The position numbers were made by a program, and so were the translations under genes. A DNA stretch of 11,568 bases from a virus. Shown in pieces: positions 1,664-2,672 of this stretch. Numbering within the stretch: the first letter of the stretch is position 1; each line of letters begins with the position of its first letter. The stretch is from the IMG/VR virus record IMGVR_UViG_3300014913_001117; one strand, given 5' to 3'. A model generated the notes under the pieces. That model worked only from the letters and a program-made list of their open reading frames with translations. It was not told the DNA's origin and searched no databases.

Positions 1664-1899
1664 TTCCAAGCTCCCCGCTCGACCAGGGGTTGGGTGTCGA
1701 AGCGACCTGGGTGCTTCTCGCGAATCTTGATGGCGTGGGAGCCCAGGGCCTTTTCCAGGTCGCAGATGTAGCGCTCGGCCGTCCCGATGTACTTGTTGGT
1801 CGATTGGACGTTGAGCTTGTGCAGCCAGACGGAGACGGTTTCCTCACCGTCGATGGCTGTGGCCAGGCGTCGGAGAGCGTCGGCGAGCTTGCGTCTCAT
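1660..1899 (-). CDS. hypothetical small protein (79 aa), last gene of the minus operon
   Basis: ATG at 1899-1897 overlaps the TGA stop (1898-1896) of the PARG-like gene as ATGA. The ORF track fused it to an out-of-frame upstream extension (1660..2517). Confidence 0.5.
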   Translation of the reverse strand: MRRKLADALRRLATAIDGEETVSVWLHKLNVQSTNKYIGTAERYICDLEKALGSHAIKIREKHPGRFDTQPLVERGAWN

Positions 1900-2672
1900 T
1901 GCTGTAGTGCTTCCTGGAAGGCCCAGAGGGTGGGGCCTCCCCCGTAGATGGGGAAGACGACCTTGTCGAAGATGCCGCTGAACTCCCTGTTCAGGTAAGC
2001 TGCGAACATCGTCGCCACGTCCCGAGGTCTGTTGCCGAAGATCCCACATCCCCAGGCACCCAGGATGAGGACCTCCGTCTGGTAGTGAGCGGCTACCTCC
2101 AGGATGCGTCGGCCCCGTCTCATCATGGTCGCGTGAGCGTAGGTGGGCTCGTCCATCGTGAGGGCTCCCACGTTCACGGCGGGGCAGGTGATGAATGCTC
2201 CCTTGTAGGGCTTCTCCAGGACGCGTCCGTTGTCGTCCCGGAAGACCCAGACCTCGGGCGAGTAGATGATGCCATCCGTGTAGAGCCCTGAGCGCTCGTA
2301 ACGGTTCGCAGCGTAGTAGGGAGAGTCCTTCAGACCTCCGATGAGTGTCGAGGACCTGGCGATGCTCTCTTCCTGAGCGACCGCCCCTCGAAGGAAACCG
2401 CCCCCTGGGTTCTTGGCCGAGGCGAAGTTCAGAGCAGTGACCCTCGCGTTGGGATTCTGGTCTCGCAAGGCGGCCAGGGTAGACTGGGTCGTGACCTGGA
2501 TCACGGACTCCGCCCACATCTGAGGGAGGGGGTTGAGCTGGTCTTCCGGAGGATGGTAGGTCGAGCCCTTCTCAGCAGGAAGCTGGACGGCTCTCCCCGA
2601 GGGGGCTCGGTACTGTCGGGACACGGTGATTTGGACGGCCTCTTTGGCCATCTTGATGAGACGTTGGCTCAC
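1896..2672 (-). CDS. bacterial-type poly(ADP-ribose) glycohydrolase-like macrodomain protein (DUF2263/TIGR02452-like)
   Basis: Contains LNFASAKNPGGGFLRGAVAQEESIARSS, which matches the PARG signature GGG-X6-8-QEE. Also has a Gly-rich diphosphate-binding loop, LILGAWGCGIFGN. GTG start at 2672 is preceded by AAGGAG with a 5-nt spacer and overlaps the upstream stop as GTGA. Confidence 0.75.
   Translation of the reverse strand: MSQRLIKMAKEAVQITVSRQYRAPSGRAVQLPAEKGSTYHPPEDQLNPLPQMWAESVIQVTTQSTLAALRDQNPNARVTALNFASAKNPGGGFLRGAVAQEESIARSSTLIGGLKDSPYYAANRYERSGLYTDGIIYSPEVWVFRDDNGRVLEKPYKGAFITCPAVNVGALTMDEPTYAHATMMRRGRRILEVAAHYQTEVLILGAWGCGIFGNRPRDVATMFAAYLNREFSGIFDKVVFPIYGGGPTLWAFQEALQQ

Follow-up and report, generated by a model that had tools for sequence, protein, structure and literature searches.

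The 11,568-nucleotide stretch of viral DNA analysed here (IMG/VR virus record IMGVR_UViG_3300014913_001117, referred to below as the window) encodes a 258-amino acid (aa) protein that, judged from its motifs, its profile matches and a structural model, is almost certainly a catalytically competent poly(ADP-ribose) glycohydrolase (PARG) of the bacterial type (DUF2263/TIGR02452). The gene directly follows a stand-alone RNA-ligase-type nucleotidyltransferase gene within a block of four overlapping genes, on an element that is probably a fragment of a huge (jumbo) phage. The composite reading, in which a competent PARG is carried by a probable huge phage as part of a coupled gene unit and removes ADP-ribose from nucleic acids, is held with slightly more belief than doubt.

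The PARG coding sequence occupies positions 1896..2672 on the minus strand, beginning with GTG and ending with TGA (1898→1896). An earlier note on this DNA had placed a 258-aa open reading frame (ORF) at 1896-2672 without naming a strand, and the ORF list agrees with this placement and assigns it to the minus strand. The note had also described an AAGGAG site and a GTG start overlapping the stop of an upstream ligase gene, both of which can be read directly: the minus strand carries the Shine-Dalgarno sequence AAGGAG at 2683→2678, 5 nucleotides (nt) upstream of the GTG, and the ligase stop (TGA, 2671→2669) and PARG start (GTG, 2672→2670) share a GTGA overlap at 2669..2672, an arrangement that indicates translational coupling. 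At the other end of the gene, the PARG stop overlaps the start of the next gene, ORF79, in an ATGA at 1899-1896 of the same strand, as read from the sequence. The JGI gene call for the same contig (P0001) starts at an internal ATG (M8) and gives a product of 251 aa. The GTG start is favoured because of the Shine-Dalgarno site and because the three closest homologues share the N-terminal MSQRLI.. sequence. Pairwise ratios of nonsynonymous to synonymous substitution (dN/dS) against three orthologues are 0.34-0.41, and the PARG is therefore a coding gene under purifying selection.

The gene product matches PF10021 ("Microbial-type PARG, catalytic domain") along the entire profile (E-value 2e-36, 126 bits, positions 1-146 of 146) and the NCBIfam profile TIGR02452 over positions 2-255 of 266 (E-value 1e-61, 208.9 bits). 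Both scores, which the earlier note had proposed as a check, are far above the cut-offs of 23.5 bits (PF10021, gathering) and 50 bits (TIGR02452). PF10021 is the sole Pfam match at E <= 0.01; the canonical eukaryotic-type PARG profile PF05028 (PARG_cat_C) is not matched at this threshold, nor is any Pfam Macro-family profile, and PHROGs and PADLOC provided no match to the protein. A sequence search of the Protein Data Bank (PDB) returned only the PARG of Thermomonospora curvata (TcPARG, 3SIG, E-value 2.4e-48) and that of Deinococcus radiodurans (DrPARG, 5ZDA-G, E-value 3.4e-48), with 40-47% identity to these solved enzymes; the alignment with 3SIG, also recommended in the earlier note, spans residues 8-247. 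AlphaFold2 modelling from a 63-homologue alignment gave a confident structure (pLDDT 92.5, pTM 0.91) in which an N-terminal helix (residues 3-18) corresponds to the family-specific helical extension preceding the macrodomain fold. The top structural homologs of this model identified by Foldseek are TcPARG (3sih, TM-score 0.90) and DrPARG (TM-score 0.75-0.81), while the best non-PARG macrodomains (MacroD/TARG1/DarG-type) reach TM-scores of 0.41-0.50 at 8-15% identity. In sequence the protein is an entirely ordinary representative of a curated family, one that any annotation with Pfam or PGAP would identify.

The catalytic residues lie in the segment LNFASAKNPGGGFLRGAVAQEE (residues 81-102, nt 2367-2432, minus strand), and the catalytic loop proper is NPGGGFLRGAVAQEE (N88-E102, nt 2367..2411, minus strand), as supported by its codons, the alignments and its invariance; the individual codons of the PARG motifs were checked against the printed window sequence. 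The motif comprises G90-G91-G92, seven residues (FLRGAVA) and Q100-E101-E102, so that the GGG-X7-QEE signature named in the earlier note is present exactly as described. E101 and E102 align with TcPARG E114/E115 and DrPARG E112, for which catalytic roles have been reported (PMC8120803, PMC6445106). QEE is present without exception in a joint alignment: in 9/9 members of the clade of the window PARG, in 111/111 other top homologues and in 78/78 aligned viral homologues. Assignment to a non-PARG macrodomain clade lacking the Glu-Glu pair, which the note had put forward as the outcome that would overturn its identification, was not borne out. The Gly loop that it had listed as GAWGCGIFG is likewise found, as the diphosphate-binding loop GAWGCGIFGN (G205-N214, nt 2031..2060, minus strand) supported by the alignments. 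Within this loop F212 aligns with TcPARG F227, a key residue of that enzyme (PMC8120803), and the 63-sequence alignment shows no variation at G205, W207, G208, C209, G210 or F212. Variants of the signature occur among other viral PARGs. A group on gut phage contigs of ~200 kb (L029-L043 and L055, the L029 group) reads GGK rather than GGG, and its counterpart of N214 is Q or a different residue. In two further loci (L053/L054) six inserted residues lengthen the signature to GGG-X13-QEE, beyond the canonical X6-8 spacing; all of these PARGs retain QEE and the diphosphate loop.

The C-terminal loop differs from that of the solved enzymes. TcPARG acts only as an exo-glycohydrolase, with an Arg268-Asp261 salt bridge (the "ribose cap") covering the 2'-OH of the adenosine ribose; DrPARG has Thr267 instead of the Arg and shows endo-activity too (PMC6445106). 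In the window PARG the cap is replaced by the shortened loop YGGGPT (Y243-T248, nt 1929..1946, minus strand), three residues shorter than in TcPARG according to alignments with DrPARG and a Thermomonospora homologue. G244 stands at the position of TcPARG D261/DrPARG D260 and T248 at that of TcPARG R268/DrPARG T267. The cap Asp is found in 0/9 members of the window clade, in 94/111 other homologues and in 38/81 viral homologues, 28 of the viral proteins having Gly there. The alignments indicate that the TcPARG-type ribose cap is absent from the window PARG and from its whole local clade, and an active site as open as that of DrPARG, or more so, may be expected. The cap distinguishes a subtype and is not a defining character of the family. 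The missing cap, the minus-strand orientation and the probable huge-phage origin had all gone unmentioned in the earlier note.

The ligase gene directly upstream of the PARG gene (2669..3256, minus strand) encodes a stand-alone protein of 195 aa. Its identification as a ligase, made in the earlier note, is upheld by a full-length match to the PF09414 profile (33.3 bits, cut-off 27) and by phrog_548 (RNA ligase); the protein contains a KVDG motif I with K22 as well as EGVVCK and FKVK motifs. The first gene of the unit, ORF232 (3253..3951, minus strand), belongs to an uncharacterised beta-rich family and overlaps the ligase start in an ATGA; ORF232 is not an ADP-ribosyltransferase (ART). The last gene is ORF79 (1660..1899, minus strand), which is translationally coupled to the PARG through the ATGA already described and has no match in Pfam, PHROGs or PADLOC. 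ORF232, ligase, PARG and ORF79 are all linked by 4-nt overlaps, by which they are recognised as a compact translationally coupled unit. A terminator-like hairpin on the minus strand (3978..4003; 10-bp stem, six GC pairs, T-rich tail; a consensus match only) closes the preceding gene, ORF256, and therefore marks the upstream boundary of the unit. The longest reading of ORF232, ORF257, would extend through this hairpin, so the shorter start giving 232 aa may be the real one. By eye, the N-terminal extension of ORF257 (..VRFSFRCMDPLMLIQTTTP.., 3952-4026, minus strand) resembles the N-terminus of ORF256 (..VLFHVRCLTPMIYIATTDP.., 4760-4830, minus strand), a likeness that is possibly fortuitous. PDB sequence searches provided nothing meaningful for the ligase or for ORF257. 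The window contains no transfer RNA gene, no Rfam family (best E-value 0.41) and no sigma-70-like promoter.

Two related contigs exhibit rearranged versions of this block. In the window the order is ORF232, ligase, PARG and ORF79. In the contig L098 (44 kb), which is syntenic with most of the window, it is ORF230, an orthologous ligase, a 99-aa membrane protein and PARG; in L002 it is ORF212, the 99-aa membrane protein, PARG and ORF79, without a ligase. The ORF79 orthologue that follows the PARG in L002 is 90% identical, and no orthologue of ORF79 is present in L098. The 99-aa protein has an N-terminal hydrophobic helix (MTAF..ILAI..) and is encoded just upstream of the PARG gene in both contigs (L098 11226-11525, L002 865-1164), with no counterpart in the window. 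The 99-aa protein, ORF79 and the ligase are thus variably present among relatives, and the block is therefore modular, though conserved.

Pairing of a PARG with a PF09414 ligase recurs beyond the immediate relatives, and the order of ligase followed by PARG is seen in the D. radiodurans operon and in at least three other phage lineages; the ligases were in each case verified by Pfam. In a 371-kb contig (L073) the gene for an HNH-ligase fusion shares 17 nt with the start of the PARG, and in the L029 group of ~200-kb gut phages the PARG, an AAA ATPase and the ligase all overlap. The ligase lies ~1 kb upstream of the PARG in L053/L054 and 3.6 kb downstream in L003. L098 retains the ligase-PARG order of the window with the 99-aa protein in between. 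Identity between the window PARG and those of the other ligase-linked lineages is 30-47%, and it is 30-49% among the latter apart from the L053/L054 pair (76%). The ligase-linked PARGs are so divergent that the linkage must have arisen or persisted in several lineages. It is the repeated direct coupling in distant lineages, not mere proximity, that is striking and suggestive.

The element that carries the unit, represented by a metagenome contig, is most likely part of a huge phage of 63% GC. Only three of the 19 genes called in the window have Pfam domains, namely the PARG, the ligase and a protein resembling the major vault protein (MVP), and gene packing is tight. All eight of the nearest PARG homologues, at 49-80% identity, lie on metagenome contigs full of small ORFans, none coming from an isolate genome, and the next-best homologues are actinomycete, planctomycete and verrucomicrobial (44-48% identity). 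A collection of 50,697 phage records was searched by megablast with the window, which gave no match, and by tblastn with its proteins. PARG homologues in this collection were limited to Bacillus phage G, Lak phages, LR756502 and LR756511, all of at least 497 kb, and one 23-kb fragment; the ligase has homologues there only in huge phages of 385-642 kb, and the MVP-like protein matches only LR756500/501/503 (462-735 kb). Members of the ORF232 family are found on contigs rich in ORFans that reach 441 kb. Scanning IMG/VR with a single protein identified no close relative. The huge-phage origin is stated only as probable because the contig carries no virion gene. The ENA contig k141_348235 (L001, assembly ERZ27227317) matches window positions 62-11522 (11,461 nt) with one mismatch, and represents essentially the same genome assembled in two repositories or datasets.

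The nature of the substrate is suggested by recent work on related enzymes. Lu et al. 2025 (PMC11833690) showed that the Streptomyces coelicolor PARG SCO0909 and DrPARG (DRB0099) reverse the ADP-ribosylation of RNA 2'-OH groups by RhsP2, that only PARG-type enzymes do so among macrodomains, and that both proteins protect Escherichia coli from RhsP2. The 2'-O-ADP-ribose linkage of RNA is chemically identical to the ribose-ribose bond of poly(ADP-ribose) (PAR), and bacterial-type PARGs are also highly active on RNA and DNA with ADP-ribosylated 5'-phosphates, SCO0909 having the highest activity (PMC11833690). For the DRB0100-0099-0098 operon the same authors propose the end-repair of ADP-ribose-blocked ends, which is still a hypothesis in Deinococcus. 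In PMC11825919 and PMC13309987, phage ADP-ribosylhydrolases of other families are described as acting in counter-defence. With an intact active site and the same ligase coupling, the phage enzyme is therefore most economically read as an eraser of nucleic-acid ADP-ribose.

Under this reading, the terminal ADP-ribose would be bound through the GAWGCGIFGN diphosphate loop, and E101/E102 would hydrolyse the O-glycosidic bond between ADP-ribose C1'' and the ribose 2'-OH to release free ADP-ribose. ADP-ribosyltransferases of the host or of competitors would create the putative targets, namely RNA carrying 2'-O-linked ADP-ribose and 5'-phosphate ends capped with ADP-ribose. Removal of the ADP-ribose would restore RNA or DNA function, after which the adjacent ligase could seal the broken ends. 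A role of the PARG in nucleic-acid repair or counter-defence is credited with a little less than an even chance; the nucleic-acid substrate in vivo and the cooperation with the ligase are both inferred. A bolder version is tentative and less probable: the PARG and RNA ligase would form a portable cassette of huge phages that counters RNA-targeting ART immunity or competitor toxins, with the ligase resealing RNA. The cap-less PARG would then strip ADP-ribose from 2'-OH and 5'-phosphate groups, and ORF232 and ORF79 might, with the same tentativeness, be specificity or regulatory subunits. If true, such a cassette would counter ADP-ribosylation much as T4 Pnkp/Rnl1 counter anticodon nucleases.

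Several observations weigh against the reading of a ligase-coupled nucleic-acid eraser on a huge phage. No ADP-ribosyltransferase, PARP, Tpt1/KptA, polynucleotide kinase or phosphatase is encoded in the 11.6-kb window or in the syntenic 20.7 kb of L098, and there are no capsid, terminase or tail genes on the contig. The ligase is missing beside the PARG of L002, the closest relative, and a PF09414 ligase is present at only 10/82 viral PARG loci. Among 80 sampled cellular PARG loci, mostly from Streptomyces, none has such a ligase beside the PARG, and the ligase was rejected as a general partner of cellular PARGs. In a crude control comprising 298 kb around MVP-like genes and L099, two ligase loci were found, against ten in 988 kb of PARG loci. 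These densities are similar, and therefore no enrichment of ligases near viral PARGs is claimed; a statistical enrichment was dropped after this control. The window ligase and DRB0100 belong to the same Pfam family with almost no pairwise similarity.

An alternative function would be the de-PARylation of proteins, in which the enzyme trims PAR chains that have been attached by a host PARP or ART or by one encoded elsewhere on the phage, thereby tuning a phage-driven programme, and the ligase is coincidental. PAR hydrolysis is the activity first shown for both TcPARG and DrPARG (PMC8120803, PMC6445106), and jumbo phages often encode ARTs and sometimes PARPs, phage G having at least ten ARTs as well as a PARG (PMC7824862, PMC9503650). 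That L002 and the majority of viral and cellular loci have no ligase beside the PARG would also fit. Against these points stand the lack of a PARP or ART in the window or L098, the scarce documentation of endogenous PAR synthesis in bacteria (PMC8120803) and the direct coupling to a PF09414 ligase in distant lineages, leaving this explanation rather doubtful, with a likelihood of about one in four in the analysts' judgement. Iyer et al. have proposed roles for jumbo-phage Macro domains on small soluble derivatives and tie Macro to KptA/2H/RNA-ligase repair (PMC7824862, PMC9503650), and the adjacent RNA ligase of the window would fit an RNA-repair pathway. The substrate would then be ADP-ribose-1''-phosphate or Appr>p from Tpt1/KptA-type NAD-dependent RNA repair, or an ADP-ribose-derived immune signal of the TIR/Sir2 type. 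Such roles are assigned to MacroD/Poa1-type domains, to which the model has a TM-score of at most 0.50, and not to the PARG clade, whose Glu-Glu pair is specialised for ribose-ribose O-glycosidic bonds (PMC8120803, PMC11833690); no Tpt1/KptA or 2H gene was found nearby, and a soluble substrate is accordingly considered improbable.

The phage origin itself can be disputed. The gene could be an ordinary chromosomal or plasmid PARG of an uncultured high-GC bacterium, giving immunity against competitor ART toxins as proposed for SCO0909. The cellular affiliation of the next-best homologues, the lack of a virion gene on the contig and the location of DrPARG itself on a megaplasmid would be in keeping with this. 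The eight nearest relatives are nonetheless all metagenomic, nearly all the neighbouring genes are ORFans, huge phages are the only source of matches to the MVP-like gene and the ligase in the phage collection, and the ORF232 family resides on large ORFan-rich contigs; a purely bacterial origin is thus judged a long shot.

Among the viruses, a profile scan of IMG/VR identified 123 stretches encoding PARG relatives, of which 80 loci were kept. Contigs of at least 200 kb carry 31/80 of these loci, and a few represent giant-virus bins. Bacterial-type PARGs with the conserved signature were already reported in phage G and pandoraviruses (PMC4245714), and Macro domains are common in jumbo phages according to two surveys (PMC7824862, PMC9503650), neither of which uses the word PARG. 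No experimental characterisation of viral PARGs, whether gp114 of phage G or other jumbo-phage and giant-virus homologues, was found in the literature searched. Clustering of 82 loci revealed no universal neighbour of viral PARGs, only lineage-specific ones: AAA ATPase, GIY-YIG, PDDEXK and Ro60/TROVE with vWA. The last of these belongs to one jumbo-phage lineage (L006, L009, L012-L014, L016, L018-L020, L084; 267-481 kb), in which the PARG lies ~1 kb from a Ro60-like TROVE and vWA protein (PF25045, PF05731). Another protein encoded at these loci shows, on visual inspection, a DxSxS motif like that of vWA domains and has no Pfam match, and a GIY-YIG nuclease gene is directly adjacent; the Ro60-like neighbour is another RNA-quality-control association of a viral PARG. 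In phage G (L087) the PARG homologue gp114 (66154-66984) is annotated only as 'gp114', and 3.4 kb downstream gp122 (70350-70829) is an 'Appr-1-p processing' macrodomain. Such pairing of a PARG with a MacroD protein has been described for some PARP-containing bacteria (PMC8120803).

The MVP-like gene (5991-8819, minus strand) encodes a product of 903-942 aa with an MVP shoulder domain (PF11978, E-value 6e-23) and Vault_3 repeats, which matches solved MVPs over residues 517-852 (E-value 6e-16). A strong 15-bp terminator-like hairpin lies 3' of the gene (5973-5940). Homologues (L085, L086, L088-L098, L044) are 37-42% identical over ~90% of the length and sit in phage genomes or contigs of up to 735 kb with GC contents of 24-58%. 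A linkage between the PARG and the MVP-like gene, by analogy with vault/vPARP, was considered and rejected: the two co-occur in the window lineage and L044, but at 12 further viral loci no PARG lies within 10 kb of the MVP-like gene. In LR756500 (L085 11660-12754) and in an IMG/VR contig (L092 6660-7754) the MVP-like gene is preceded at a distance of ~2.2 kb by a PF09414-like ligase gene, and the window ligase is 2.7 kb from its MVP-like gene, which may reflect a loose MVP-like/RNA-ligase neighbourhood. The 179-aa product of a minus-strand ORF at 5396-5935 opens with MWHPRTMTPTRRQVLGLIPALAVGTAISLRA, a sequence resembling a twin-arginine (Tat) signal peptide; the protein is unmatched in Pfam and has a homologue in L098. 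The sole PADLOC match in the window, DpdC for ORF99, is marginal (E-value 0.003) and was disregarded.

The physiological role of bacterial-type PARGs is still debated, as bacteria rarely make PAR and yet thousands of genomes keep the enzyme. The first evidence that these enzymes erase ADP-ribose from RNA dates from 2025, and the end-repair idea rested on a single Deinococcus operon. Finding the ligase coupled ahead of the PARG on a probable huge phage, and again in several other jumbo-phage lineages, provides independent comparative support for the end-repair hypothesis and moves it into phage-host conflict. RNA- and DNA-targeting ADP-ribosyltransferases are known defence weapons in this conflict. 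Viral PARGs and the Deinococcus ligase-PARG operon are already published. In the literature searched, whose scope stopped short of the Burroughs & Aravind 2016 RNA-repair survey, three features appear to be new: the recurrence of the ligase-PARG coupling in huge phages, a clade wholly without the ribose cap, and the travel of the cassette with two uncharacterised proteins. The cassette is small and easily cloned, comprising two genes of 195 and 258 aa, and makes it testable whether the PARG unblocks ends for the ligase, whether phages escape ART-based immunity in this way and whether loss of the cap alters the substrate range. Should none of these roles be true, the gene would be one more correctly annotated TIGR02452 member.

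Among known systems, TcPARG (3SIG/3SIH), the type of the bacterial DUF2263 PARGs, shares ~40% identity over residues 8-247, the N-terminal helical extension with the macrodomain (TM-score 0.90), the GGG-X-QEE loop and the GAWGCG-F-GN diphosphate loop including the Phe. It differs in having the Arg268-Asp261 cap, where the window PARG has T248 and G244 in a loop three residues shorter, and in being chromosomal in an actinomycete, whereas the window PARG is probably borne by a huge phage. SCO0909 is also a TIGR02452 protein, and the Streptomyces homologues compared here are 42-45% identical to the window PARG. The activity of SCO0909 on 2'-O-ADP-ribosylated RNA and on RNA with ADP-ribosylated 5'-phosphates is the best documented. 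SCO0909 differs in its chromosomal location and in the lack of an adjacent PF09414 ligase in the sampled Streptomyces-type loci. Eukaryotic-type PARGs (PF05028) have the catalytic signature, the mechanism and the cleaved ribose-ribose bond in common with the window PARG, which is much smaller, without accessory domains and without a PF05028 match. The DarG-like and NADAR hydrolases of phages are likewise phage-borne erasers of nucleic-acid ADP-ribosylation directed against host ART toxins (PMC11825919, PMC13309987). They act on base-linked ADP-ribose on DNA through NADAR or DarG/TARG1-type domains, in contrast to the PARG type, which acts on ADP-ribose linked to the ribose 2'-O and to phosphate.

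A viral parallel is gp114 of phage G, a virus-carried bacterial-type PARG with 40.5% identity over 97% of the protein, although it retains the cap Asp and has no adjacent ligase. DrPARG (DRB0099, 5ZDA-G) is 47% identical over the macrodomain; it retains the cap Asp260, which is Gly in the window PARG, and shares a Thr at the other cap position (T248 = T267), a residue linked to endo-activity (PMC6445106). The D. radiodurans operon is carried by the megaplasmid pMP1 and is induced by DNA damage, its ligase is only distantly related to that of the window, and its third gene is DRB0098, an HD-phosphatase/polynucleotide kinase, in the place where the window has a 79-aa ORFan; no HD, AAA_33 or other kinase or phosphatase domain was found anywhere in the window. 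In both systems, the Deinococcus one as given in its annotated record, a small stand-alone PF09414 ligase (210 aa in DRB0100) directly precedes the PARG with a 4-nt overlap, so that the gene order and the coupling are the same.

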